A stretch of DNA of 20,000 nt from an uncultured virus (IMG/VR IMGVR_UViG_3300037067_021324) (Duplodnaviria; Heunggongvirae; Uroviricota; Caudoviricetes). Both the position numbers and the translations under genes were made by a program. The stretch lies in the IMG/VR virus record IMGVR_UViG_3300037067_021324; one strand, written 5' to 3'. Below, piece by piece: positions 3,582 through 19,757 of the stretch. Below the pieces are notes generated by a model. That model saw only the letters and a list, made by a program, of their open reading frames with translations, was not told where the DNA came from and searched no databases. Position 1 is the stretch's first letter. The number at the start of each line of letters is the position of its first letter.

Positions 3582-5225
3582 ATGAAAAAATTTTATGCAA
3601 TAATTTTAGGTTTTACAGCCATTTTGTTGGCTGTTACAGCAGCTTATTTCTCTGTGTTTGGGCTATCCAAATTATTTATAGGAGCTGCAACGTCAATTAT
3701 TATCATGGCTGGAACTCTTGAGTTTTCAAAAATAATAGTAGTGTCTTACTTACATCAATATTGGGATAAAATAGCAAAAAAAATAAAAGTATATTTACTT
3801 ATTGCAATAGCAGTATTGATGATTATTACCAGTGCTGGTATTTATGGATTTTTAACCAATGCTTACTCAAAAGTATCAACAGAGTTAGACAAGATGGGGG
3901 GAAATATAGAATTATTAGACAAAAGGATAGAAATAAAAAAAGAAGAAAAGAATAGGCTTGATGAGCAGCTAAAAACAAAAAGTGATAGGGTTATATCATT
4001 GACAAATCTTAGGAAAAGCCAAGAGACAAGACTGGATTCTTTGTATCAAAGAGGATGGATGGCTGCAGCAAAAAAAACAGAGGTTATAATAAGTCAAGCT
4101 GATGATAACATCACATCAGTAAATAAAGAAATTGATGCAATTGGAAAAAAAATAGAAATTTTAAATGATTCAATTGCTAAATATGAAACTTCAAAATTAG
4201 AAATTGATAATAGTAATATTGCATCAGAAGTGGGACCTCTTAAATATATTGCAAAATTAACTGGAACGGAAATGGATACTATTGTTAATTGGTTAACATT
4301 GCTTCTAATTATAGTTTTTGACCCTATGGCAGTGGCTCTTGTTATATCTACAAGTGCAATGATTAAATTAATTAGAGAGGAAAAACAGAATGAAAAAAAT
4401 AAAAGCAGAAGTGATTACTTTAAAAAGAAAGTGCAATATGTATCTGATGAGCAAGGTAATTTTAAATTGCAAGATGAAAACATTGGCATAAATAAATCTT
4501 CATTGAAAAACAAAGTATTAAAAAAATGGAAAGACATATTTAATAAAATTCCTTTTACGAAAAAGCCAACAGTAGATGAAAATGCTATTAAAAAAGAATT
4601 CGTTGAAAATGACATTATTAAAGAAAATATCACCAAGGAGGAAAACGCTATAAGTGATAATAATCCCATTAAAAAAGACACTATAGAAAAAGAAAATGTT
4701 GTAAATAAAGAATTTACTGAAGAAAATAGTTTTATCAAAAGAGATTCTATAGAGAAAGAGTCTACTGAAAAAGATGTTATAAAAGAATATATAGAAAATG
4801 AAACTAAAAATACTATAGAAGAATTTAAAAACGAAATTCCGATTTTTAGCGTGAATCAGAATACTGTGGTTCCTAGTGTTTTTACTGCAACAACTTCTCA
4901 AAATGAAACAGGAGAAAGAATTGAAGAAAACATAGCAGAAGAAGTTGAAAAGTTAACAATTGAGAATGTAGGGCAAAAACAAAGTTTGTATTTAAAATTG
5001 TTAGAAATTTTTTATGATAACGGAAATAAAAAAAAGGGAGATGAAATACCAAGTTATTCAGTTCTAATAAAGATGATAGATAAAAGAATAATTAATGTTA
5101 ATGAAAAAGATGTTAAAGATTTTCTTTTAATATGTAATCTATTAAAAATAACAGAGTTTAAAGAAAATCTTGGAATTTTTGAAAAAGATTATAAAAATGC
5201 AAAAATGCTTATATCAAGTATTTAA
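3582..5225 (+). CDS. Membrane-anchored coiled-coil protein
   Basis: Three N-terminal hydrophobic segments, a long heptad-like region, a further TM segment (WLTLLLIIVFDPMAVALVI) and an acidic low-complexity C-terminal half. Confidence 0.8.
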   Translation: MKKFYAIILGFTAILLAVTAAYFSVFGLSKLFIGAATSIIIMAGTLEFSKIIVVSYLHQYWDKIAKKIKVYLLIAIAVLMIITSAGIYGFLTNAYSKVSTELDKMGGNIELLDKRIEIKKEEKNRLDEQLKTKSDRVISLTNLRKSQETRLDSLYQRGWMAAAKKTEVIISQADDNITSVNKEIDAIGKKIEILNDSIAKYETSKLEIDNSNIASEVGPLKYIAKLTGTEMDTIVNWLTLLLIIVFDPMAVALVISTSAMIKLIREEKQNEKNKSRSDYFKKKVQYVSDEQGNFKLQDENIGINKSSLKNKVLKKWKDIFNKIPFTKKPTVDENAIKKEFVENDIIKENITKEENAISDNNPIKKDTIEKENVVNKEFTEENSFIKRDSIEKESTEKDVIKEYIENETKNTIEEFKNEIPIFSVNQNTVVPSVFTATTSQNETGERIEENIAEEVEKLTIENVGQKQSLYLKLLEIFYDNGNKKKGDEIPSYSVLIKMIDKRIINVNEKDVKDFLLICNLLKITEFKENLGIFEKDYKNAKMLISSI

Positions 5226-5556: not shown

Positions 5557-7644
5557 ATGGCAAGAACATTTGATGCTGAAAGAGATGAAAAAAACTTGAA
5601 TCCTACAGGTAAAAAAACAAAAACTCCTTTATTAGACTATTTCGGAAGAGATTTGACAAAATTAGCTTCTGAATCAGAATTAGACCCAGTATATGGGAGA
5701 GACAAAGAAATAGAAGAAATAATTCAAGTGCTAAATAAACGAAAAAAGAATAATCCGCTTTTAGTAGGAGAACCTGGAGTTGGGAAAACCGCAGTTGTTG
5801 AAGGTTTAGCTATTAAAATACATAAAAAAGAAGCTGAAGTGTGGCTTTTAAATAAACGTATTGTTGAAATTAACATAACATCTATGGTTTCTGGAACAAA
5901 ATATAGGGGAGAGTTTGAACAAAGGATGGAGGAGTTAATTAAAGAAATTGAAAACAATCCAGATATAATAATTTTTATTGATGAAATACATAATGTGGTT
6001 GGTGCTGGAGGAACTTCTGGGTCTATGGATGCTGCCAATATTATAAAGCCAGCATTATCAAAGGGAACTATGAAATGTATTGGGGCAACTACTTTTGAAG
6101 AATATAAAAAACACATTGAAAATGAAGGCGCTTTTGAAAGAAGATTTCAAAAAATTTATGTTAATGAACCAACAAAGGAAGAGACTGAAATACTATTAAA
6201 TAGTATTAAAGGAAAATATGAAGAATATCATTGTGTTGAATATTCAGAAGAGGTTATTAAAACATGTATAGATTATGCTGATAAATATATAACTTATAGA
6301 AAATTTCCAGATAAAGCAATTGATTTATTAGATGAAGTGGGGTCAAGAGTAAAATTAAAAAATGTTCCAGTTCCAGGAAATTTTAAAGAGCTAGAAGCAG
6401 AATTAGAAAAAACTGTTCTTAGAAAAAAAGAAGCGTCAAAAAATCAAAATTTTGAAGAAGCCGCAAGACATAGAGATGATGAAAGGAGAATACTTGAAGA
6501 ATTGGATAATGAAAGAAAAGTGTGGGAAAGAGAAACAAAAAAAAATAAAATTAAAGTAAAATCAGAGGATGTTGCTTGTATAATAGCATCTCATACTGGA
6601 ATTCCTGTAGTTAAATTAACTGATTCAGAAAATAAAAAATTTTTAAGTATATCAGATTATTTAAAAGAAAAAATAATAGGGCAAGATGAAGCAGTTCAAA
6701 AAGTAGAAGAAGCTATGCAACGGTCAAGATTAGGTATTCAAGACCCCTTTCGACCTCTCGCATCGTTTTTGTTTCTTGGTCCTACTGGAGTTGGCAAAAC
6801 TCTAATGGCAAAACTTATAGCTTCTCATTTATTTCACACAAATGACTCTTTTATAAGAATTGATATGTCTGAATATGAAGAAAAACATTCTGTATCAAAA
6901 CTCATAGGGTCTCCTCCCGGATATATTGGACACGAAGACAAAGGTCAATTGACTGAAAAAGTAAAAAATAGACCTTATTCACTTATTTTATTTGATGAAA
7001 TTGAAAAGGCACATCCAGATGTTTTTAATGTTTTTTTACAAGTACTTGATGAAGGAAAATTAACTGATTCTACTGGGGCTGAAATAAATTTTAAAAATAC
7101 AATTATTATAATGACATCTAATATAGGGACAAGAAGTTTGTTAGAAGGTAACTCTTTAGGTTTTGGAGTTAAACTAGATACTCTTAAAAATGACAAGAGT
7201 CTTGTATTTAAAGAATTAGAGAAAAGTTTTAAGCCAGAATTTCTTAATAGAATTGATGAAAAAGTAGTGTTTAATCCTCTTGGTAAAGAACAAATAGAAA
7301 TCATTGCAAAAATTGAAATGGACATGATGCTTTTTAGACTTAAAGAAAAAGGATATAATATAACAGTATCAAAAGAAGTTGTTTTAAGTATCGCTACCGT
7401 TGGATATGATAAAAAATATGGAGCTAGACCAATTAAAAGAGCCATTTCAGAAAGAGTAGGAAACCTTATTTCTAAAGCTGTGTTGAAAAAAGAAGTTGTA
7501 GTAAATAAAAAATATAGTCTTATATTGGAAAATGATGAAATAGTTATACATGACGAGACACCAATAGAGCAATTTGCAAATGATTCAGCAAATATTGAAA
7601 AACCAAAAAAAATCAGAAAAAATGCTAGAGATAAAAGCGAATAA
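5557..7644 (+). CDS. clpC: ClpC-like Hsp100 AAA+ ATPase lacking the Clp N-domain
   Basis: Two AAA+ modules (GEPGVGKT / IIFIDEIH; GPTGVGKT / ILFDEIEKAH), pore loops KYRGEFE and GYIG, UVR-like middle coil (QNFEEAARHRDDE), LGF loop, YGARPIKR. Confidence 0.92.
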   Translation: MARTFDAERDEKNLNPTGKKTKTPLLDYFGRDLTKLASESELDPVYGRDKEIEEIIQVLNKRKKNNPLLVGEPGVGKTAVVEGLAIKIHKKEAEVWLLNKRIVEINITSMVSGTKYRGEFEQRMEELIKEIENNPDIIIFIDEIHNVVGAGGTSGSMDAANIIKPALSKGTMKCIGATTFEEYKKHIENEGAFERRFQKIYVNEPTKEETEILLNSIKGKYEEYHCVEYSEEVIKTCIDYADKYITYRKFPDKAIDLLDEVGSRVKLKNVPVPGNFKELEAELEKTVLRKKEASKNQNFEEAARHRDDERRILEELDNERKVWERETKKNKIKVKSEDVACIIASHTGIPVVKLTDSENKKFLSISDYLKEKIIGQDEAVQKVEEAMQRSRLGIQDPFRPLASFLFLGPTGVGKTLMAKLIASHLFHTNDSFIRIDMSEYEEKHSVSKLIGSPPGYIGHEDKGQLTEKVKNRPYSLILFDEIEKAHPDVFNVFLQVLDEGKLTDSTGAEINFKNTIIIMTSNIGTRSLLEGNSLGFGVKLDTLKNDKSLVFKELEKSFKPEFLNRIDEKVVFNPLGKEQIEIIAKIEMDMMLFRLKEKGYNITVSKEVVLSIATVGYDKKYGARPIKRAISERVGNLISKAVLKKEVVVNKKYSLILENDEIVIHDETPIEQFANDSANIEKPKKIRKNARDKSE

Positions 7645-8140
7645 AACAATTTATTTTAATGGAGAAAAATTAGACATTAAAGATGGTTCAATGAAGGATT
7701 TTTTAATATCTTCGTTAAATTGTCAAGTTATATTGGACAAAGATTTAATACTTGGTGATTTAATACATATTTTATATGAAATCAGAGAATTTATTAATTT
7801 ATATTGTTGTGAAGAATATGAAGTTGGAAGAACTTTAATAAATGCTGGAAGGTTGGCACAAGGATATGACTATTTAAAAATTTTTAAAAACGCAGAAGTA
7901 ACTACTGATGGATTTTTAAAAATAAACGTTCAATCTGATTTATGCTCTTATGAAAATTTGGGTAAAATACAAAATGTCTGTAATCTAAAAATAGTACTTG
8001 ACTCAAAAATTGTTGATGATGATGAAATTTTAAGAAAGGGGATTGAGTTAAAATCAGATTTTACTTTGTTAGAAATTATAGAAGTTTTATATGAAGACTT
8101 TTTATATTCTTTAGAAAGAGATAACATTTTAATTAATTAA
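7622..8140 (+). CDS. Hypothetical protein
   Basis: In-frame ATG at 7622 (MLEIKANK...) overlaps the clp 3' end only slightly and is more plausible than 7574. Confidence 0.7.
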   Translation: MLEIKANKTIYFNGEKLDIKDGSMKDFLISSLNCQVILDKDLILGDLIHILYEIREFINLYCCEEYEVGRTLINAGRLAQGYDYLKIFKNAEVTTDGFLKINVQSDLCSYENLGKIQNVCNLKIVLDSKIVDDDEILRKGIELKSDFTLLEIIEVLYEDFLYSLERDNILIN

Positions 8141-8305
8141 AAAATTTTTAATAATTTTATATCTGATAATCAAATAACTGAATGATTTTTTTTAAAAAAA
8201 TGAAAAAAAATTTGGTTTTTATTTTAGAATTTAATATTTTTGTATATATTTATAATGTTAAGAAGTAAAATTCTTAATAATAATGTTCTTAAAAATATTG
8301 AAAAT

Positions 8306-8435
8306 ATAAAGTGGCTATTGAAAGAGTTACTTCGGTTTATAATTGGTTCGACTCCAATCGTGCCCACCAGAAATTCTGGGCGTGATTTATTCCTGGAGAC
8401 AGGAATATTACACTCTTCAAAACTTTCCCTTTTAT
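8306..8435 (+). ncRNA. Y RNA (YrlA-like) with circularly permuted tRNA-like domain
   Basis: 5' AAAG-TGGCTAT-TGAAAGAGT-TACTTCG pairs with 3' ACTCTTCAA-AACTTTCC-CTTT. Inside: T arm ATTGG/TTCGACT/CCAAT, acceptor-like CGTGCCC-ACCA...GGGCGTG, and a TATTCCTG-GAGA-CAGGAATA hairpin. Lies upstream of ro60. Confidence 0.8.
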
Positions 8436-8439
8436 TTTT

Positions 8440-8466
8440 GTAACTTTTTTAAAAATATTGCGTATA
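8440..8466 (+). promoter_or_regulatory. GTAAC-N16-CGTATA promoter-like motif (copy 1)
   Basis: Same motif and 16 nt spacer at 15660, 15991 and 19620; AAC...CGT resembles ECF-sigma promoters. Confidence 0.7.
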
Positions 8467-8505
8467 AGATAATGTTAGTTCTTTAAAATAGAATTTATAA
8501 AAAAT

Positions 8506-8570
8506 TATAGTGGCGATAAATAGAGATACTTCGATGCAAATGAAAAAACTCTGTTTGAAAATTCCCTATG
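8506..8570 (+). ncRNA. Short Y-RNA-like element 2
   Basis: TATAG-TGGCGAT-AAATAGAGA-TACTTCG...CTCTGTTTG-AAAATTCC-CTATG; same conserved motifs as element 1 with covarying stems. Confidence 0.7.
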
Positions 8571-8579
8571 TTTAAAATA

Positions 8580-8655
8580 TTTGAGTGGCTATTAAAAGCA
8601 GTTCATCGCTATTAGTAAATTGCAAAACAAACTTGCTTTAAGACTTTCCCTCAAA
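8580..8655 (+). ncRNA. Short Y-RNA-like element 3
   Basis: TTTGAG-TGGCTAT-TAAAAGCA-GTTCATCG...TGCTTTAA-GACTTTCC-CTCAAA; same architecture as elements 1 and 2. Confidence 0.7.
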
Positions 8656-8661
8656 AAACAT

Positions 8662-8704
8662 AATAGGGACACTATGTAGAAATACATTATGTCCCTATTT
8701 TTTT
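8662..8704 (+). terminator. Terminator-like hairpin between the Y RNA array and ro60
   Basis: AATAGGGACA...ATGTA-GAAA-TACAT...TGTCCCTATT followed by a T run. Confidence 0.75.
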
Positions 8705-8733
8705 AATTAAATATTAACAAAAAATTAGATGTT

Positions 8734-10440
8734 ATGTCAAAATTTAACGAAAAAAGTGTGGCAAAAAACATAACCACAAATTATATGGGCGAGAAAGCTT
8801 ATATAGAAAAACCTGAATTTGAACTTGTTTCAATGCTTTTAACTTCATTTATGGAAGATTCATATTATGAAAAATCAAGTGATATGTTGGAAAGAATGAA
8901 GGCAGTATTAGAGAAAGTGGACACAAAATTTGCAGCAAAAGCTGCGATTTATGCGAGAAATGAATTTGGTATGAGGTCTATTTCTCATGTATTATCAATA
9001 GAATTATTGAAATATATTGGGGGACAGTCATGGGGAAAGAATTTCTTTGAATCTATTATCCGTAGGCCAGATGATATGACAGAAATCATCGCTTACTATT
9101 TTGCACAAGGGAATAAAAAGCTTCCTGCTGCAATTAAAAAAGGATTTGCTAAAGCATTTAATAAATTTGATAGATACCAAATTTCAAAATACAAAGGAAA
9201 AAATAAAAATGTTTCTCTTGTTGATGTTGTAAATCTTGTTCACCCACTTACAACCAAAAAAAATGGTGTTGTTGAAATAAAAAAGGATGAATATGCCGCC
9301 TTACTTGAAAAGAAATTAAAAAGTTTTGGGAAAAATGCAAATAAATATTCTGAAAAAATTGCAGAAATAAAAGCAAATTTAAATGAGATTAAAAATAATC
9401 AAGGAGATACTATTGAAATTTCAACTCTAAATGCATTGATGGCTGGCTTATTGAAAAACACAGAAACATGGGAAGCAAAGCTTTCAAAAGCCGGACAAGA
9501 AGCTAAATCTGATGAAGAAAAAGCAGAATTGAAAACAGAAGTTTGGAAAGATTTGTTTAAAGCAAAGAAAATGCCTTATATGGCTTTGCTAAAAAACTTA
9601 AGAAACATTTTTGAACAAGCTCCTGAACTTATTGATGAAGTTTGTGAAATGCTTGTTAATAGAAAAGCAATTGAAAATTCTTTGGTTCTTCCTTTTAGAT
9701 TTCTTTCAGCATATGAAGAAATAGAAAAACTCAAAAAAATAGGTACTTTCGAAAAAGATGAAGAAAATATTAGAAAGATTCTTGCTGCTATTGATGATGC
9801 TATTAAAACATCTGTTGTAAACTTGCCTACCTTATATGGAAAAACAGTTATTCTTTCCGATAATTCTGGAAGTATGACTGGTGATAGGGGTAATAGTTCG
9901 TTAATATCAAGATTGTCTAATATAAAAACAAGTGATATTGCAAATTTGTTTGCTGTACTTTATTGGCTAAAAGCTGATAATACTTTAGTTGGATTGTTTG
10001 GAGATAGATTAATATATCCAACACTTAACAGAAATGCTGGAGTATTTGAAAATTTTAAAGCAATTGATATCGAAAAAAACAAATGTGGGCCTAGCACTGA
10101 AAGAGGAATTTTTGATATGTTTGAAAAATTAATAAAAGAAAAAACTATAGTTGATTCAATTGTTGTTTTTTCTGACTGTCAAATAGGAAGTGGTTGTAAA
10201 TGGTATGACCAAAAAGGAAATCGTGGGGGAGAATTTAATAAATTATTTAATGATTATAAAAAAATAAGTCCAAAAGTTAGAGTGTATTCTGTAGATTTGA
10301 AAGGTTATGGAACAAACGTTTTCAATGATAATGTTTATAAAATTTTTGGATGGTCAGATAAAATATTTGACATCATGAAAGTTTTAGAACAGGACAAAAA
10401 TGCTCTTATTAAAATAATCAATGAATATGTTGATTTTTAA
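8734..10440 (+). CDS. Ro60/Rsr-like TROVE-domain ribonucleoprotein with C-terminal vWA domain
   Basis: TROVE motifs (TNYMGEKAY, AIYARNEFGMRS, RRPDDMTE, FD.YQ.SKY, DVVNLVHP, TWE, MPYMALLKNLRN, LPFRFLSAY), MIDAS DNSGSM, FSD.Q, VDLKGYG, IFGWSDKIF. Confidence 0.95.
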   Translation: MSKFNEKSVAKNITTNYMGEKAYIEKPEFELVSMLLTSFMEDSYYEKSSDMLERMKAVLEKVDTKFAAKAAIYARNEFGMRSISHVLSIELLKYIGGQSWGKNFFESIIRRPDDMTEIIAYYFAQGNKKLPAAIKKGFAKAFNKFDRYQISKYKGKNKNVSLVDVVNLVHPLTTKKNGVVEIKKDEYAALLEKKLKSFGKNANKYSEKIAEIKANLNEIKNNQGDTIEISTLNALMAGLLKNTETWEAKLSKAGQEAKSDEEKAELKTEVWKDLFKAKKMPYMALLKNLRNIFEQAPELIDEVCEMLVNRKAIENSLVLPFRFLSAYEEIEKLKKIGTFEKDEENIRKILAAIDDAIKTSVVNLPTLYGKTVILSDNSGSMTGDRGNSSLISRLSNIKTSDIANLFAVLYWLKADNTLVGLFGDRLIYPTLNRNAGVFENFKAIDIEKNKCGPSTERGIFDMFEKLIKEKTIVDSIVVFSDCQIGSGCKWYDQKGNRGGEFNKLFNDYKKISPKVRVYSVDLKGYGTNVFNDNVYKIFGWSDKIFDIMKVLEQDKNALIKIINEYVDF

Positions 10441-10457
10441 ACATTATATTTTTAAAT

Positions 10458-10499
10458 AAAAAAACCTGGATAAATTTGATTTTGTCCAGGTTTTTTTTT
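10458..10499 (+). terminator. Intrinsic terminator after ro60, overlapping the next promoter
   Basis: AAAAAACCTGGATAAA...TTTGTCCAGGTTTTTTTTT. TTTG (10475-10478) N20 TATATTTG (10499-10506) overlaps it. Confidence 0.8.
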
Positions 10500-10529
10500 A
10501 TATTTGGCAAAAATAAAAATAAAAGACAA

Positions 10530-11129
10530 ATGGATATAATACACAAACCCAAAGTAAACAAAAAGATTTCAGAAATTCTTAATTCTTTTTATTTAGAACA
10601 AAATAGTGATACCAATAGAAGCGGAATAGCTTATCAAATTAAATGTTTTTTGGAATATGAAAAAATTAATTATGAAACAGTAAATCTTTATACTCCGCCA
10701 GAAAGAGTTGATAGAGAATTGATAGACATTAGAATAGATGATGAGTTATATCCATTTAAGGAAATTATTGAACTGAACGAGGATAATTGGAGAGAATATT
10801 GTATTAAATGTGAAGATGGCTATTTGCTAAATAAAGATGATATCATAGAATTATTTCAATATTTAATTAATGAAGGATATGCATGGAATTTGCAGGATTT
10901 TTATAAAAGGAAAGCAGAAGAATTGATTAAGGAAGGATATTGTACACTTTCTTATAATAATACCACAGGACATTATATATGGGGAAACGTAAAAATCCCA
11001 TCAAAATATAATTTAAAACCAAATGCCCCAGGAACTGATGAATATGTTCAAAAAAGAAAAGATTTAAATGATGACGAATTTTTTACATGGTCAAATTTGC
11101 AAATGAGTAATGAAGAAGAAACGGAATAA
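10530..11129 (+). CDS. Hypothetical phage protein
   Basis: The ATG at 10530 follows the promoter; the TTG at 10476 lies inside the terminator. Contains IIELFQYLINEGYAWNLQ.FY.R.A..LI.EGYC, a motif resembling a common small phage domain of unknown function. Confidence 0.75.
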   Translation: MDIIHKPKVNKKISEILNSFYLEQNSDTNRSGIAYQIKCFLEYEKINYETVNLYTPPERVDRELIDIRIDDELYPFKEIIELNEDNWREYCIKCEDGYLLNKDDIIELFQYLINEGYAWNLQDFYKRKAEELIKEGYCTLSYNNTTGHYIWGNVKIPSKYNLKPNAPGTDEYVQKRKDLNDDEFFTWSNLQMSNEEETE

Positions 11130-11152
11130 TATTTGCGATTCAGAAGTTAAAT

Positions 11153-11176
11153 AAAAAAGGGGCTTTATGCCCCTTT
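11153..11176. terminator. Bidirectional terminator between convergent genes
   Basis: A-tract, GGGC-TTTAT-GCCC hairpin, T-tract. Confidence 0.65.
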
Positions 11177-11180
11177 TATT

Positions 11181-11558
11181 TTATCTCATTTCATATAATT
11201 TTCGCTCTGCTGCTAATTTTGCTCTTTTAACTTCTTTAAAAATATCTAAAATAACTTGTTTGTGTCTTTTTCCTTCCTCAAGTCTTGTTGCAACTTCTGG
11301 AATGGCTTTTATATGTGATTCCTGCCTTAAAGTAGCTGTTTCTAATTTATTGCAGGCTTCTGCCAAATTTTTAACAACTTCTTCTAAATCTTTTTTATAT
11401 GATTCATAAACATTGCTTTCATAAGTTTTTTCTGTGTTTTCTTCGCTTACTTCATTTAAAAATCCCAATTCTTTATTAATATTTTTTAATTCTAATTCTA
11501 ACATTGTTATTTTATGTAATTTAACAATTTCTTCTTTTATATATTTTTTTGCATCCAT
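11181..11558 (-). CDS. Hypothetical coiled-coil protein
   Basis: 125 aa E/K-rich ORF starting MDAKKYIKEEIVKL; TATTTATA upstream on the minus strand. Confidence 0.75.
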   Translation of the reverse strand: MDAKKYIKEEIVKLHKITMLELELKNINKELGFLNEVSEENTEKTYESNVYESYKKDLEEVVKNLAEACNKLETATLRQESHIKAIPEVATRLEEGKRHKQVILDIFKEVKRAKLAAERKLYEMR

Positions 11559-11625
11559 AGCTTTACAGTTTTATATAAATAGATAAAAATTTGATTTTTA
11601 AAAATATTATAACTATATTTTTACT

Positions 11626-11970
11626 ATGGGATTTATTTATTTAATAAATAGTGGAACTACGGATAAATATAAAATTGGTGTGTCAAAAAATCCACCCAAT
11701 AGAAAAAAGGAATTGCAAACAGGAAATCCACAAGATTTAATTTTGGTAGATTACTATGAAAGTGAGAATTATCAAAAAATAGAAACAATTTTACATAGAA
11801 ATTTAAAACATAAGAAGTATATCGAAGATGACTTCAGAAATCTAAAGGGCGAATGGTTTATACTAACAAATGAAGATGTCTTAAACTTTAAACAAAAATG
11901 TAAAAAAATAGAAGACTCAATTGAATATCTAAAAGAAAATTCAACTTTTGATATAACAAAAATTTTATAA
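11626..11970 (+). CDS. T5orf172 / GIY-YIG-like nuclease domain protein
   Basis: GFIYLI...YKIGVS..P..R..ELQTGNP..L...E..LH......GEWF.L pattern. Confidence 0.9.
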   Translation: MGFIYLINSGTTDKYKIGVSKNPPNRKKELQTGNPQDLILVDYYESENYQKIETILHRNLKHKKYIEDDFRNLKGEWFILTNEDVLNFKQKCKKIEDSIEYLKENSTFDITKIL

Positions 11971-12080
11971 TTACGTATAATTAAAAAATATTTGTAGAGT
12001 TGAAACAAAAATATAGCCTTTAATGCATAAATTAAAGTAAGTAGTATTATTTTTGTTTTACCTTATAAACAAATTAAATT

Positions 12081-12260
12081 ATGGAAGAAAAGAAATTCAC
12101 AACAGAAGAAGTAATAACTTTATTAAAAGCATTCCATCTTGATTCAGTTGAAGGAAGATATAGTAAAGAATTATTAGAATGGTGCAATAATTGGATTGAT
12201 TACAACATTAAAGAGAAAATAGATTTTGAAACATATATGAAAAATTCAAAACAAAAATAA
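12081..12260 (+). CDS. Small hypothetical protein (59 aa, not in ORF track)
   Basis: AAATT-ATG start; MEEKKFTTEEVITLLKAFHLDSVEGRYSKELLEWCNNWIDYNIKEKIDFETYMKNSKQK, TAA at 12258-12260. Confidence 0.7.
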   Translation: MEEKKFTTEEVITLLKAFHLDSVEGRYSKELLEWCNNWIDYNIKEKIDFETYMKNSKQK

Positions 12261-12299
12261 TATTATTTATAAACAATTACAAACAAATATAGTGCGATT

Positions 12300-12566
12300 A
12301 TGAAACCTTCAAATTTTATCACTTATCCTTGGTCTTCTGTTTGTCAAAAATCAGAGTGCGAAACTATTGCAATGAATATTATGGTTATTTTAAAAAGAAC
12401 TGGCGATGAATTTAGAAATTTATCTTTTGAAGAATATAAATTAGAACGTTTGAAAGATGGTAATTATACCGAAAAAGAAAAAGAATATTTTGAACAGGTA
12501 ATTGGTTATTGCAAATCTGAAGATACTGCTAAATTATTTAGTAAAAGTTGGGCAAATTGTATTTAA
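12300..12566 (+). CDS. Hypothetical protein, probable gene cassette
   Basis: 88 aa ORF whose TAA stop forms the TAAC end of an attC-like hairpin. Confidence 0.75.
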   Translation: MKPSNFITYPWSSVCQKSECETIAMNIMVILKRTGDEFRNLSFEEYKLERLKDGNYTEKEKEYFEQVIGYCKSEDTAKLFSKSWANCI

Positions 12567-12616
12567 CGGTTGCACAAATATATTGTTGTTTTAATGCAAT
12601 ATATTTGTTGTTATAA
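12560..12616 (+). repeat. attC-like hairpin 1
   Basis: TATTTAAC...ACAAATATATTG (12574-12585) / CAATATATTTGT (12597-12608)...GTTATAA. Confidence 0.6.
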
Positions 12617-12655
12617 GTATGTAAAACAAAAATTATACAAATAAAAAATAAAATT

Positions 12656-12856
12656 ATGGAAACAACAAAATTTGAAAAAATGTACGAAAAATATTTAAAC
12701 AGATTAGATGCTAAATTCAGAAAGGAAGATGCCAAAATGATTGGTAAACGAGATGCTCTTTGTTATGGTAATATTGATTACACAAAAGATGAGTTTTTGA
12801 AAAAAATAAATGCAGATGCCGAATTTGCTAAAAAATGGGAAGTTATTAATTCATAA
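12656..12856 (+). CDS. Small hypothetical protein, probable gene cassette
   Basis: 66 aa ORF flanked by about 26 bp inverted repeats (12610-12636 and 12853-12878). Confidence 0.7.
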   Translation: METTKFEKMYEKYLNRLDAKFRKEDAKMIGKRDALCYGNIDYTKDEFLKKINADAEFAKKWEVINS

Positions 12857-12870
12857 TTTTTGTTTTATTA

Positions 12871-12969
12871 CTTATAACGTTTTGCAGATTTGCGTTTGTG
12901 TGCCACGCAAAAATGTTTCTTTAATGGCACACCGTTTATTGGCACATAACGCAAATGTGCTGTTATAAC
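12871..12969 (+). repeat. attC-like hairpin 2
   Basis: CTTATAAC...GCAGATTTGCGTT-TGTGTGCCA...TGGCACAT-AACGCAAATGTGC-TGTTATAAC; long imperfect palindrome. Confidence 0.65.
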
Positions 12970-12980
12970 CAGTGCGGAAT

Positions 12981-13187
12981 ATGAAAAAGAAAGCTCACGA
13001 ATTAGAATTTATTAGCCAAATAAAACGAGATGGCTCAGGAACAACAAAAGTTAAAAAAAGCTACTTAAAAGCTATGTTAGAAAATTCATTGATGAAAGAC
13101 GAAGATTTTGAATTGCATTGCCTTTCATTAAGCGAAAAAACCTTTATAGCTTTTAACTTTAATGCTTTTATTGTTAGGGTCAAGTAG
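12981..13187 (+). CDS. Small hypothetical protein, probable gene cassette
   Basis: ATG at 12981, TAG stop; flanked by GTTATAACCAGTGC (12962-12975) and GCATTGGTTATAAC (13187-13200). Confidence 0.6.
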   Translation: MKKKAHELEFISQIKRDGSGTTKVKKSYLKAMLENSLMKDEDFELHCLSLSEKTFIAFNFNAFIVRVK

Positions 13188-13255
13188 CATTGGTTATAAC
13201 TAGTTTATAACAGCAATAAAGATGCCATTTATAAATTTAAAAATCAATAATCTAA

Positions 13256-13453
13256 ATGGATTTTGAATATAGATTTAAGAATATTGATAATCTTCGTTGT
13301 GATATGAATGGAAATTTTATTTGTAATAATATCCCCATAAAAAAGCAATGGCGACCTGGACAAATTTTTATTAAAGTGTCTGGAAAAAGATATGGGATAA
13401 AAACGTTAAGAAAATTAGCATATAAAGTTGAGTGTGAAAATTTACCTTTTTAA
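13256..13453 (+). CDS. Small hypothetical protein ending in ENLPF
   Basis: 65 aa ORF in gene order. Confidence 0.65.
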   Translation: MDFEYRFKNIDNLRCDMNGNFICNNIPIKKQWRPGQIFIKVSGKRYGIKTLRKLAYKVECENLPF

Positions 13454-13465
13454 TACATAAAAATT

Positions 13466-14260
13466 TTGAATATAATAGCAAAACATAATGATTTACCTAT
13501 TGCTGTCATCGGAGATATTCATGGCGAATTTAATGTGATAATAAAAAAGGTTAAACATTATGACCTTAATGATGTTGTATTGCTTGTGGCTGGAGATATG
13601 GGTGTGGGATTTAATTACAACAATCCCAGAGAACCAAAAAAAGAAAAAGTAAGGTTGTTATATTTAAATCAATTCCTAAAAAGACACAATATTTTTCTTT
13701 ATATTGTAAGAGGTAATCATGATAACCCTTCATTTTATGATGGTAAACATAATTTAAGTAATTTAATTTTTATGCAGGATTATGACATTGTACAAGTTGG
13801 CGAATATATGATTTTGGGTGTTGGGGGAGCAACCTCTGTTGATAGAAAACCAAATCATCATTTTAAAGATTACAAAGGAGAGAATCATCCAGGAAGAAGA
13901 GAAAACGTAGATTGGTGGCCAAATGAAAAAGTTATATATGATGAAGAAAAATTGAATGTAATTGCTGGTATAGATATTGTAGTAACACATACTTGTCCCG
14001 ATTTTGTGCATCCTCCTGTATTGGGTGATAATGTTTGGAAGTGGTGTGATTGTGACCCAGAATTAAAAAGCGAACTTATTGAAGAACGTGAATTAATGGG
14101 AAAGATTTATGATAAGCTAAACGAGTTGAGCGTAATAAAATGGTGGTATTATGCCCATTACCATCAAAGCAATTTTCAGACATATAACAGTACAAAATTC
14201 AAACTTTTGGATATTGGAGAATTTCATGAAATAAAATTTAAAAACGAACAAAATGAATAA
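13466..14260 (+). CDS. Calcineurin-like metallophosphoesterase
   Basis: GDIHG, AGD.G, RGNHD, VTHT and AHYH metal-binding motifs in the correct order. Confidence 0.92.
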   Translation: MNIIAKHNDLPIAVIGDIHGEFNVIIKKVKHYDLNDVVLLVAGDMGVGFNYNNPREPKKEKVRLLYLNQFLKRHNIFLYIVRGNHDNPSFYDGKHNLSNLIFMQDYDIVQVGEYMILGVGGATSVDRKPNHHFKDYKGENHPGRRENVDWWPNEKVIYDEEKLNVIAGIDIVVTHTCPDFVHPPVLGDNVWKWCDCDPELKSELIEERELMGKIYDKLNELSVIKWWYYAHYHQSNFQTYNSTKFKLLDIGEFHEIKFKNEQNE

Positions 14261-16933: not shown

Positions 16934-17002
16934 GGGGAAAATAGCTTAAAGTAGAGCGATTGCTTTGACAAGATGTTGGTGGTTCATATCCATCTTTCCC
17001 CA
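16934..17002 (+). tRNA. Degenerate tRNA-like gene (possible TTG anticodon, malformed anticodon arm)
   Basis: Acceptor GGGGAAA/TTTCCCC, D stem GCTT/GAGC, T arm GGTGG-TTCATAT-CCATC; anticodon arm only TTG-CTTTGA-CAA. Confidence 0.55.
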
Positions 17003-17007
17003 CAAAT

Positions 17008-17190
17008 GGCTGTCTAACACATTTCAGATTGTGTAGTGATTAGAGAAATTAAATAACAATCAGCTGTAGTTATTTGAAAGTAAAAATTCATAAAACATGT
17101 AAAACCAATGTATAGCTTACATTGCGAAATGAGGTGTTAAATTCTAGAAGTAGCTATCTAGAGTTGGGGGTTCGAATCCTTCGGCGGCTA
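17008..17190 (+). ncRNA. tRNA-scaffold RNA with large structured insert
   Basis: Acceptor GGCTGTC/GGCGGCT-A, TA linker, D stem ACAC/GTGT, T arm GGGGG-TTCGAAT-CCTTC; about 130 nt between D and T arms with three AGCT-loop hairpins. Confidence 0.6.
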
Positions 17191-17220: not shown

Positions 17221-17655
17221 ATGAAACAATTAAAAAGTTCTACAATGCTTGAAGCATGTAAATATCAGAAGCCTTCGGCTTTCAGTAGAGGAATGTCAGT
17301 AAAACTAAAAATGGACACCGAAATGATATTTATATCTGGAACAGCGAGTGTGGGAGAAAATGGAGATACATTATACAAAGGAAATTTTAAAAAGCAAACA
17401 AAGAGAATGTTTGAAAATATTACAGCTCTTTTGAAAAATGGAGGAATAACCTGGAAAAATGTAATCAAAACCACAATTTACTTAAGAGATATTGACCGTG
17501 ATTATGAAGAATTTAATGTTATAAGAAAAGATTTTTATGACAAAATGGGGTTAAGCATATATCCTGCTTCAGTTTGTGTAGAAGCAAAATTATGTAGAAA
17601 TGATTTATTAGTAGAAATGGAGTTAATAGCAATAAAAGATGAAACCGTACAATAA
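17221..17655 (+). CDS. Rid (YjgF/YER057c/UK114) family protein
   Basis: PSAFSRG, IFISGTAS, QT..MFENI..LL, V.KTTIYL.D, FN..R..F, PAS..V...LCR.DLLVEME.IA; ATG at 17221. Confidence 0.88.
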   Translation: MKQLKSSTMLEACKYQKPSAFSRGMSVKLKMDTEMIFISGTASVGENGDTLYKGNFKKQTKRMFENITALLKNGGITWKNVIKTTIYLRDIDRDYEEFNVIRKDFYDKMGLSIYPASVCVEAKLCRNDLLVEMELIAIKDETVQ

Positions 17656-18088
17656 ATTTAAATCTTTCCAAATAAGATGGAAAGAAAAAATGGGGAAAGA
17701 TAAAAATGACCCATATCTTATTAGATGGACATTTATATTTTTTAATTATTCCATCAGGATTCATAAATGGATAAGGTCAGATGATAAGAGATTTTTTCAT
17801 GACCATTCTTGTAATCTTGTATCAATGATTTTAAAGGGATGGTATTATAATGTGATTCCAGTTGACCCTGAAAATCCAGATGTAAATAATTGTAAAAAAA
17901 TAAGAGCAAAAGCATGGAAACCATGGTATGCAAATGCAAAGAAAAAACATTATTTGGAAATTCCTAAAGAAGGTGCCTGGACAATATTATTCTGTGGAAG
18001 GCCATACCACAAATGGGGATTCTATGTAAAAGGAAAAAGAGTAAGACCATTAAAATATTTTTATAAGTATGGAATGGTAAATGAATAA
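17639..18088 (+). CDS. Cupin-like phage protein
   Basis: YL.RW....F..SIRIH....SDD.R.FHDH...L.S.ILKGWY and H.LE....AWTILF.G....KWGF motifs. Confidence 0.7.
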   Translation: MKPYNKFKSFQIRWKEKMGKDKNDPYLIRWTFIFFNYSIRIHKWIRSDDKRFFHDHSCNLVSMILKGWYYNVIPVDPENPDVNNCKKIRAKAWKPWYANAKKKHYLEIPKEGAWTILFCGRPYHKWGFYVKGKRVRPLKYFYKYGMVNE

Positions 18089-18093
18089 AAGAG

Positions 18094-18300
18094 CGCCCTT
18101 TAGCTCAGTTGGTCAGAGTACCTGTCATCGAAAATTTCGTATTAGCTATACGAGAGAATAGATGGAGTATGAGTGGAATTATTGAAAGTAAAAAAAGTGG
18201 AGTGTTAAAAAGCTATTAATGTGAAACTAGAATGAAATCAATTTGGAAATAAGTACTTTATACTTGCAGGAGGTCCGAGGTTCGAATCCAAGGGGGGCGA
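18094..18300 (+). ncRNA. tRNA with anticodon loop replaced by a 140 nt structured insert
   Basis: Acceptor CGCCCTT/GGGGGCG-A, TAGCTCAGTTGGTCAGAGT D arm, anticodon stem CCTGT/GCAGG, variable loop AGGTC, T loop TTCGAAT (T stem has two mismatches); insert 18126-18265. Confidence 0.7.
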
Positions 18301-18452
18301 GGCAACTAAATTAACTCACTTGCACGAAGTGGTTGCTGCATAGCGAAAGCTAACTAAGAAGTTAATAAGCGTTCTTTGATGTATTTAAGTATAAATAAAA
18401 TCATTTAACTGATTTTTTTAAAAATTTGTTATATAACAAAAATAATTGGGAA

Positions 18453-18935
18453 CTAATGTTTACACTTTTTGCAAGATTGTTTTCCGCAATAAGTTTCTGT
18501 TTGACTATGACAGTTTGGACACAGAAATCTCAGATTGCTCAATCTATTATCATTGTTAATGCCATTTTTGTGGTCTAATTGTAATGTTAATGTTTTATCT
18601 AGCCATTCACCATTATTGTTGCACTCACAACATGTATACTGTAAAAGACCTGCTTTGATAATTCTTAATTTCAATCTATAATTATTATTATATTGTGAAT
18701 CCTGTACAAGGATTTCATTTAATGGCACCCCACGTTCTCCACACAATTTGTGTCCCAACATATGGCTGACAGATAATTCTTCATCACGTATTCTGTTGTT
18801 GATTTTATTGTAATTTGACGCACTTGTATATTTATATCCAAGTTTTAACAAAGCATGCTTAATGCTCACACTCGATTCAATTACTTTTTTAAATTCCTCT
18901 TTAGAAATTGAATCAATTTTTGTTTTGTTTTTCAT
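18453..18935 (-). CDS. HNH endonuclease (tRNA-cluster associated, homing-type)
   Basis: C..C...W....L.LQLDHKNG...DNRLSNLRFLCPNCHSQT motif; lies antisense between tRNA genes; TAG stop. Confidence 0.92.
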   Translation of the reverse strand: MKNKTKIDSISKEEFKKVIESSVSIKHALLKLGYKYTSASNYNKINNRIRDEELSVSHMLGHKLCGERGVPLNEILVQDSQYNNNYRLKLRIIKAGLLQYTCCECNNNGEWLDKTLTLQLDHKNGINNDNRLSNLRFLCPNCHSQTETYCGKQSCKKCKH

Positions 18936-19036
18936 AATTTTTTATTATAAATATATAAAAAAACAAAAAACTTGAATAGATGTCCAAATAAATGTTAAAT
19001 TAAAATGGAGTATTATAATAAATTAAAAAACAAAAT

Positions 19037-19110
19037 GGGAATGTAGCTCAGAGGCAGAGCAATCCACTCTAGATGGATTTTGGTCGCAGGTTCGAATCCT
19101 GTCTTTCCTT
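19037..19110 (+). tRNA. tRNA with CUA anticodon (amber suppressor 1)
   Basis: Acceptor GGGAATG/CTTTCCT (one U-U), D arm GCTC-AGAGGCA-GAGC, anticodon arm ATCCA-CTCTAGA-TGGAT (CTA at 19069-19071), T arm GCAGG-TTCGAAT-CCTGT; CCA not encoded. Confidence 0.85.
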
Positions 19111-19165
19111 CAATTGCACAAGGTGTACAGTTATAAATTAAAATAAAAATTTAAAAAAAATAATT

Positions 19166-19684: not shown

Positions 19685-19757
19685 CCCCCCATAGCTCAGT
19701 TGATTAGAGCAGTGGACTCTAAATCCATGGTCGAGAGTTTGAATCTCTCTGGGGTGG
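19685..19757 (+). tRNA. tRNA with CUA anticodon (amber suppressor 2)
   Basis: Acceptor CCCCCCA/TGGGGTG (one mismatch), D arm GCTC-AGTTGATTA-GAGC, anticodon arm GTGGA-CTCTAAA-TCCAT (CTA at 19719-19721), T arm GAGAG-TTTGAAT-CTCTC. Confidence 0.85.

Follow-up and report, generated by a model that had tools for sequence, protein, structure and literature searches.

At positions 18094 to 18300 of the window (the whole 20,000-nt stretch analysed, from the uncultured virus record IMGVR_UViG_3300037067_021324) lie, on the plus strand, the two halves of a tRNA body separated by a structured insert. An initial annotation had described a tRNA body split in this manner, and direct reading and folding bore this out. 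The window has a GC content of 27.5% and appears to derive from a huge phage, and the locus belongs to a low-GC, TAG-recoding phage. The window also encodes SSB, a ClpB-like ATPase, a GIY-YIG-like protein, a metallophosphoesterase, and PTH2-like and RidA/L-PSP-like proteins; genes such as those for SSB and the ClpB-like protein suggest that the host is a bacterium. The main features are as follows.

8734–10440, plus strand: Ro60/TROVE (Rsr) gene (Pfam, 1.3e-24), 7.6 kb upstream of the element
16935–17002, plus strand: odd tRNA (Rfam, 41 bits)
17008–17190, plus strand: second tRNA-shaped gene with an extensive structured interior
17639–18088, plus strand: gene for a 149-aa protein (PHROG phrog_4786, 8.4e-28), ending 5 nt upstream of the tRNA
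18094–18126, plus strand: putative 5' exon of a valine-type tRNA (sequence reading; in-silico join giving an ARAGORN tRNA-Val)
18127–18259, plus strand: structured insert of 133 nt, a putative intron (132 nt in the case of an 8-nt mature loop) (RNAalifold, homologue comparison)
18260–18300, plus strand: putative 3' exon (sequence reading; in-silico join)
18453–18935, minus strand: free-standing HNH endonuclease gene (phrog_10822, 1.3e-39)
19037–19111 and 19685–19757: tRNAs with anticodon CUA

Surroundings of the tRNA locus

Relatives of the 149-aa gene were found at 37 huge-phage loci of IMG/VR, on contigs of up to 640 kb and nearly always among tRNA genes. Pfam gave no match for this neighbour at E-values up to 5, and nothing useful for the other ORFs without assigned function. 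On the downstream side, the HNH gene sits in a variable cassette (18301–19029) that separates the split tRNA from the suppressor tRNA following it. A contig of metagenome run X5 connects position 18300 with 19030 through 198 different letters that replace the HNH stretch, and the HNH gene is absent at the corresponding place in a close homologue (L001, see below). Contigs from three of four metagenome runs cease to resemble the window at 18300, and this position therefore behaves as a gene end. The first 100 nt or so after 18300 are 81% identical in another homologue (L059), with small hairpins present.

Homologues of the element with and without the insert

Four distinct homologous sequences, three of them close, were compared: the window, L001, L059 and L012. 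L001 (positions 4457–4665) belongs to G001, a 372-kb record rated complete by CheckV, and follows the 149-aa gene as in the window. L059 is a 1002-nt metagenome contig carrying the element on its minus strand, with the 5' end cut off. L012 (positions 1403–1603) is very divergent and was detected only with a covariance model covering the insert and the anticodon stem. The scores with the insert model were 176 bits for L001, 93 bits for L059 and 21.4 bits (E-value 3.7e-4) for L012. A contig of run X8 spanning 18003–18300 represents a 13%-divergent copy (39 differences and 2 gaps) outside the four counted sequences, and a contig of X3 is identical to the window over 18117–18816. Being conserved in other contigs, the element is more than a chance arrangement.

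Outside these sequences the searches gave little. The exact two-half pattern found no match in viral contigs, and further pattern scans recovered G001's contig only, plus one chance match in coding sequence. The pattern scan of metagenomes returned three loci, namely L060 (identical to the window over the compared stretch and taken as its own contig), G001's contig and L059. A relaxed scan produced 99 loci, among which the insert model confirmed G001's alone, and a genome scan produced six loci, every match being partial or weak. One of the 99 loci (L141; 15.7 bits, E-value 0.039 with the insert model) was taken as a chance match. GenBank phages gave nothing matching by megablast, or by blastn with the insert. 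Among the contigs of four metagenome runs none joins across the insert, which is a neutral outcome.

Homologues of the same tRNA free of the insert were found in related phages, at L008 (positions 3923–4002; the sequence type of L007, positions 2714–2793) and L010 (positions 2421–2501). Both have the D arm of the split gene and the anticodon stem UCUGU, with loops UUUUACGA and UUUAACUG. They share the 5' half and the loop and stem sequence, and the insert forms a single gap in the alignment to both exons. The intronless tRNA-Val(tac) gene of G001, by comparison, is unrelated in sequence to the split tRNA. The insert-free relatives have unusual 8-nt anticodon loops and weak or irregular T stems, so that even the parent tRNA was atypical; in huge phages that recode TAG, such tRNAs may read four bases or decode in some other unusual way. 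The insert-free genes adjoin suppressor tRNA(CUA) genes.

The tRNA halves

The 5' exon contains the acceptor 5' strand, U8 A9, the D arm, A26, CCUGU (18121–18125) and C32 (18126). The 3' exon contains A33 to U38 with anticodon UAC (18261–18263), GCAGG (18266–18270), AGGUC, the T arm and the acceptor 3' strand GGGGGCG, followed by the discriminator A73 at 18300. The acceptor stem (CGCCCUU/GGGGGCG) is of 7 bp, including two G.U pairs, and is followed by U8 A9. The D arm reads GCUC-AGUUGGUCA-GAGU with G18 G19, A26 coming after it, and the anticodon stem consists of 5 bp (CCUGU/GCAGG), with 140 nt between its two strands. The variable loop is AGGUC and the T loop UUCGAAU. A cloverleaf is thus recognizable by its 7-bp acceptor, D arm with G18 G19, 5-bp anticodon stem and T loop of the form UUCRANY. 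The description of this body as near-canonical holds for the acceptor, D arm, anticodon stem, variable loop and T loop, but not for the T stem, where only three of five pairs form in CGAGG-UUCGAAU-CCAAG, leaving two purine-purine mismatches.

A regular 5-bp T stem, U33 and a purine at 37 are present in L059 and L012 but not in the window, which has A33 and U37 when the loop is read as 7 nt. The T arm of L001 carries one extra nucleotide and two mismatches. The acceptor stem is preserved between the window and L001 through compensatory changes, and C1-G72 stands at the start of every family member with its 5' end present. The identity elements of valine tRNA are, as we take from work on E. coli, A35, C36 and A73. 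A35 and C36 are found in all four homologues, and A73 in the window, L012 and L059; in L001 this position is ambiguous (A or G) owing to the extra nucleotide.

Anticodon and exon joining

The anticodon loop had initially been described as replaced by the insert. It is instead split: a valine anticodon (NAC) lies exactly 5 to 3 nt upstream of the 3' strand of the anticodon stem, and a C directly follows the 5' strand, in four of four distinct homologues. The anticodons are UAC in the window, AAC in L001, UAC in L059 and GAC in L012. The six nucleotides preceding the 3' strand have the form N-NAC-N-N (A-UAC-UU in the window, U-AAC-GU in L001, U-UAC-GA in L059 and U-GAC-AU in L012), a register that reads as positions 33–38 carrying a valine anticodon.

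Upon joining of C32 to N33 by script, ARAGORN called tRNA-Val in all three full-length copies, the window, L001 and L012 (anticodons tac, aac and gac), L059 being left out for its missing 5' end. Contrary to the earlier statement that no splice restores a 7-nt loop, joining C 18126 to A 18260 in the window gives such a loop with anticodon UAC. An alternative 8-nt loop, C plus UAUACUU, would restore U33 in the window copy, and since loops of 8 nt are found in the insert-free genes, the same length may apply to the mature loop of the split gene. The boundaries of the insert are uncertain by about 2 nt. The sequence UUUUUUACGA-GCAGG of L059 matches the loop of L008, which places the insertion after nucleotide 31 or 32. 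A U31.G39 wobble pair lies beside the possible 5' splice site in five of six family members. From its sequence, the locus reads as a valine-type tRNA gene interrupted by an insert of 132–133 nt on the 5' side of the anticodon.

Fold of the insert

RNAalifold on the window and L001, with recounting after addition of L059, gave a three-way junction atop the anticodon stem, with the following helices (all on the plus strand).

Pa, 18126–18129/18161–18164: CAUC/GAUG, the first pair using the exon nucleotide C32
Pb, 18135–18142/18148–18155: hairpin on Pa, UUUCGUAU-UAGCU-AUACGAGA, with loop UAGCU
Pc, 18165–18170/18253–18258: GAGUAU/GUACUU
Pd, 18174–18179/18241–18246: part of the long arm
Pe, 18183–18185/18238–18240: part of the long arm
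Pf, 18196–18198/18226–18228: part of the long arm
Pg, 18202–18208/18216–18222: 7-bp hairpin ending the long arm, with loop AAAGCUA

The long arm is thus composed of Pc-Pd-Pe-Pf-Pg. The hairpins noted at the outset (CAUC/GAUG, the one with loop UAGCU, and GUGUUAA-AAAGCUA-UUAAUGU) are supported by compensatory changes in the homologues; the helix AGUAUGA/UUAUACU gave way to the conserved pairing GAGUAU/GUACUU of Pc. In the alignment of L059 with the window and L001, 96.5% of the 115 cells form pairs, and nine of the 41 pairs in the model of insert plus anticodon stem are changed on both sides, these counts resting on three sequences of which two served to derive the structure. None of 500 shuffles reached either the pairing or the compensation value, and sliding of the partners by 1–3 columns as a control left 37–46% paired, with 0–1 compensatory pairs. 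The fold of the single sequence is no more stable than that of shuffles (z = -0.97), and the case for the structure therefore rests on the comparison of homologues.

In L059 a GAAA tetraloop on Pa (CACC-GAAA-GGUG) stands in for the entire Pb, and the remainder of the insert is kept; judging from this replacement, Pb appears to be a peripheral element. The unpaired columns are invariant at 40 of 71 positions, yet 28 of those 40 are deleted in L059. Invariant unpaired stretches of the insert are AGUAAA, GGAG, AAGCU and GAAUGAAAU. AGUA opposite GAA presumably resembles a loop-E/sarcin-ricin motif, and GGA opposite GAA presumably resembles tandem sheared pairs. The loops UAGCU and AGCU might kiss each other, though L059 is without one of them. 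The window and L001 share 72% identity over the insert, 75–79% over the exons and 85% over the neighbouring 149-aa gene, which rules out the idea that the insert is more conserved than the exons. Since the identity of the insert is below that of its surroundings, its sequence is not unusually conserved; what is conserved is the pairing, and the fold of the insert appears to have been kept in shape during evolution.

Searches for known RNA classes

The locus was called neither by ARAGORN under default settings nor by the Rfam tRNA model at the gathering score. With introns allowed, ARAGORN called Val(gac) for L012; its calls of Pro(tgg) for the window and Lys(ttt) for L001 were rejected, as they disagree between clear homologues. 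A permissive Rfam scan of 17900–18500 at E-values up to 10 gave just three matches, all weak and spurious, and none to an intron, ribozyme, tmRNA or Y-RNA family. The model of the group I core (Intron_gpI) also remained without a match over this range, in keeping with the initial annotation, which saw no such core, and no known intron, tmRNA or ncRNA family of Rfam matches the element. The last nucleotide of the insert is U in the window, L001 and L059, instead of the terminal G of group I introns. By eye, no RYRGG internal guide for CCUGU was seen, and hammerhead, hairpin and twister motifs were found neither by eye nor via Rfam.

In a manual attempt on the window sequence, no bulge-helix-bulge (BHB) motif could be drawn at the junctions, the four nucleotides following the 3-nt bulge being unable to pair with U38 U37 C36 A35. 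EndA (PF01974) gave no match in the complete 372-kb G001, the control being positive in four archaea. G001 encodes RtcB (180 bits), an Rnl2-family ligase and Rsr. A transposon-like DNA was rejected, as neither terminal inverted repeats nor a target duplication were seen at the ends of the insert. The possibility of a tmRNA was also rejected, given the full D arm and anticodon stem, the pair C3-G70 in place of G3.U70, and the lack of a conserved tag frame; the window and L001 differ by non-synonymous changes in a short frame within the insert. ARAGORN made no tmRNA call for the element, and the match to Rfam covers only 11 nt of the T loop.

Other tRNA-shaped genes

The odd tRNA at 16935–17002 has a counterpart in L001, which ARAGORN reports as tRNA-??? 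and in which the anticodon loop is shortened. Directly next to this odd tRNA comes the second tRNA-shaped element, with its extensive structured interior (window 17008–17190; L001:3217–3401). The acceptor of this element, GGCUGUC/GGCGGCU, is compensated in L001 as GGCUGCU/AGCAGCU. A D arm, about 110 nt of conserved hairpins and the T loop UUCGAAU follow, with a 9-bp hairpin having an 8-nt loop just upstream of the T arm. It shares UUAUU(U)GAAAGUAAAAA and a hairpin with loop UAGCU with the insert studied here. No tool called this element, and no anticodon could be assigned to it.

By ARAGORN, G001 has 46 tRNA genes, including two CUA and one UUA (ochre) suppressors and none for Ile or Glu. At several loci of related phages, tRNAs of types that are usually short measure 80–94 nt. 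G001 and related phages may harbour more tRNA genes that are interrupted or expanded.

Discussion

With moderate confidence, we propose that the locus is a valine-type tRNA gene interrupted after nucleotide 31 or 32 by a self-folding RNA of 132–133 nt that behaves as an intron. The insert would be a further form of the unclassified tRNA introns of Lak megaphages, its removal by splicing being suggested by the sequence comparison. The initial annotation had left the choice between a scaffold carrying a cargo RNA and an intron of new type; the evidence favours the latter over the former, in that the anticodon is kept in four of four homologues, insert-free homologues exist and no known intron class fits.

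The split tRNA gene is probably co-transcribed with the gene upstream, and its transcript probably undergoes the usual trimming of tRNA ends, at 18094 and 18300. The presumed splice sites would both be located at the three-way junction, the 5' site one base pair into Pa and the 3' site 0–3 nt past helix Pc, and thus close to each other in space. The insert would then be excised at the junction, through its own catalysis or by some endoribonuclease, and the halves would be sealed by an RNA ligase, for instance RtcB or an Rnl2-type enzyme as encoded by G001. The expected product is a tRNA reading valine codons, possibly with an 8-nt loop like that of the insert-free relatives. Given A33, U37 and the T-stem mismatches of the window and the T-arm defects of L001, these copies may decode poorly or not at all.

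The defective T stems and A33 keep alive two other readings, in both of which the gene yields no spliced tRNA. The insert could never be removed, so that a stable tRNA-shaped RNA of about 207 nt, trimmed by RNase P and a 3' nuclease, displays the insert as a module and serves as a decoy, protein platform or regulator instead of a codon reader. We regard this as a possible but distinctly less probable account. The T stems of the window and L001 are defective, the window has A33, the fold of the insert is fully kept, its unpaired nucleotides are strongly conserved in the manner of protein- or RNA-binding modules, and no splicing machinery was found (with Rfam at 17900–18500, and for EndA in G001). 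Such an RNA would not explain, however, why the valine anticodon and the loop-restoring geometry are kept in four of four homologues, including the very divergent L012, and it is also at odds with the existence of homologues without insert and with the retention of the acceptor stem and A73. If the insert does stay in place, the locus would be a natural example of a tRNA body displaying a folded RNA module. The other reading, that a selfish insertion disabled the tRNA gene, which now decays without any function at the RNA level, could account for the T-stem mismatches and A33 of the window copy and agrees with the homing-type HNH gene adjoining in a variable cassette. We consider it unlikely, as compensatory changes keep the helices of the insert across about 28% sequence divergence, the acceptor stem is compensated too, and the insert ends are without terminal repeats or target duplication.

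A partner RNA of the phage Ro60/Rsr (TROVE) protein, in the form of a YrlA-like tRNA mimic fused to a Ro-binding module, is suggested by the TROVE gene at 8734–10440, whose arrangement is the same in G001 (G001:C1:83831–84688). YrlA itself was detected neither at 7400–13600 (E-values up to 5) nor at 17900–18500 (up to 10), nor window-wide at the Rfam gathering score, leaving this protein without a canonical partner in these ranges. The start of the insert, A(U/C)CGAAA, resembles the Ro-binding motif GNCGAAN0-1G as quoted in the available part of Chen et al. (2014; PMC4201824). This motif, however, is present only in part and on the opposite strand side from that in YrlA, and in L059 it is a mere GAAA tetraloop closing a 4-bp hairpin; the YrlA topology is reversed and the acceptor open. 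The link in occurrence is weak, since TROVE is found in five of 37 related records and the insert model matches two of the 37, both being present in one record. A Y-RNA-like function is thus improbable in our estimate. TROVE lies within about 10 kb of the cluster of tRNA genes and the 149-aa gene in at least G001, G017 and G026.

We give the lowest probability to the possibility that the models missed a group I intron of much reduced size or one of the known small self-cleaving ribozymes. To our knowledge, all characterised tRNA introns of bacteria and phages so far are of group I, and the U31.G39 wobble next to the possible 5' splice site would suit one. Known group I introns, on the other hand, are of about 200 nt or more, far above the 133 nt observed here; the insert ends in U instead of G, shows no guide pairing with CCUGU, and has no Rfam intron or ribozyme match at E-values up to 10 over 17900–18500.

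Within the preferred reading of a spliced tRNA gene, the insert could, as a tentative extension, represent a new class of small catalytic intron, whose compact and A-rich RNA excises itself from the phage pre-tRNA at the three-way junction and leaves ends to be sealed by an RtcB- or Rnl2-type ligase. If so, a natural tRNA splicing pathway of ribozyme plus ligase would exist in bacteria and their viruses, and might time the appearance of an unusual valine tRNA with 8-nt loop during infection. As far as we know, bacteria and phages are thought to splice tRNAs solely via self-splicing group I introns. The conserved non-group-I inserts of megaphage tRNAs have been unexplained since 2019, and this locus provides a well-defined test case, with a small intron of 132–133 nt having a supported fold, a natural minimal variant (L059), insert-free homologues fixing the site within about 2 nt, and a relative carrying RtcB and an Rnl2-type ligase and no EndA. 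The removal of such introns thereby becomes directly testable in vitro.

Relation to known systems

Like tmRNA, the element has a tRNA-like domain and a large domain where the anticodon stem would continue, but it differs in its full D arm and anticodon stem and in the absence of G3.U70 and of a conserved tag frame. YrlA, as described in the available part of Chen et al. (2014), is circularly permuted and ends in the Ro-binding stem, with its acceptor closed. It resembles the element in that a tRNA-like D arm, T arm and acceptor are joined via the anticodon-stem position to another module, and the genome region here also contains a Ro60/TROVE gene. The assignment to YrlA or another bacterial Y RNA was nevertheless rejected, since Rfam gives no match, the topology is reversed with the acceptor open, the ends lie outside the Ro-binding stem, and co-occurrence with TROVE is weak.

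Archaeal BHB tRNA introns, cut by EndA and joined by RtcB, are comparable in occupying positions other than 37/38, and the related phage G001 encodes RtcB; they differ in that no BHB could be drawn here, no EndA was found in G001, and a bacterial host is indicated. Group I tRNA introns share the host gene and the location in the anticodon loop, and their 5' splice site lies within P1 as the presumed site here lies within helix Pa. In contrast to them, the present insert is without Rfam match, terminal G or guide sequence and measures 133 nt.

The closest likeness is to the 'enigmatic', highly conserved and unclassified introns in tRNAs of Lak megaphages (Devoto et al. 2019; PMC6784885), the sole account of non-group-I introns in phage tRNAs that full-text literature searches brought up. 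In the available part of that paper, its authors describe introns of phage tRNAs as previously unreported. Lak megaphages and the present phage are alike in being huge, low in GC and TAG-recoding, with suppressor tRNAs, and the introns, as far as that part describes them, are alike in being conserved, of about 90–130 nt, located in the anticodon loop and outside any Rfam class. A conserved anticodon-loop insert in a huge-phage tRNA without Rfam class is what was found here, and membership is meant in this sense, the family being defined only descriptively in that part of the paper. The Lak tRNA-Tyr example given there (Table S6) carries its insert on the 3' side of the anticodon (37–129), whereas the insert here lies on the 5' side, after nucleotide 31 or 32, and the two inserts show no evident resemblance. 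For the present insert, a covarying fold with a three-way junction and homologues free of the insert are now documented.
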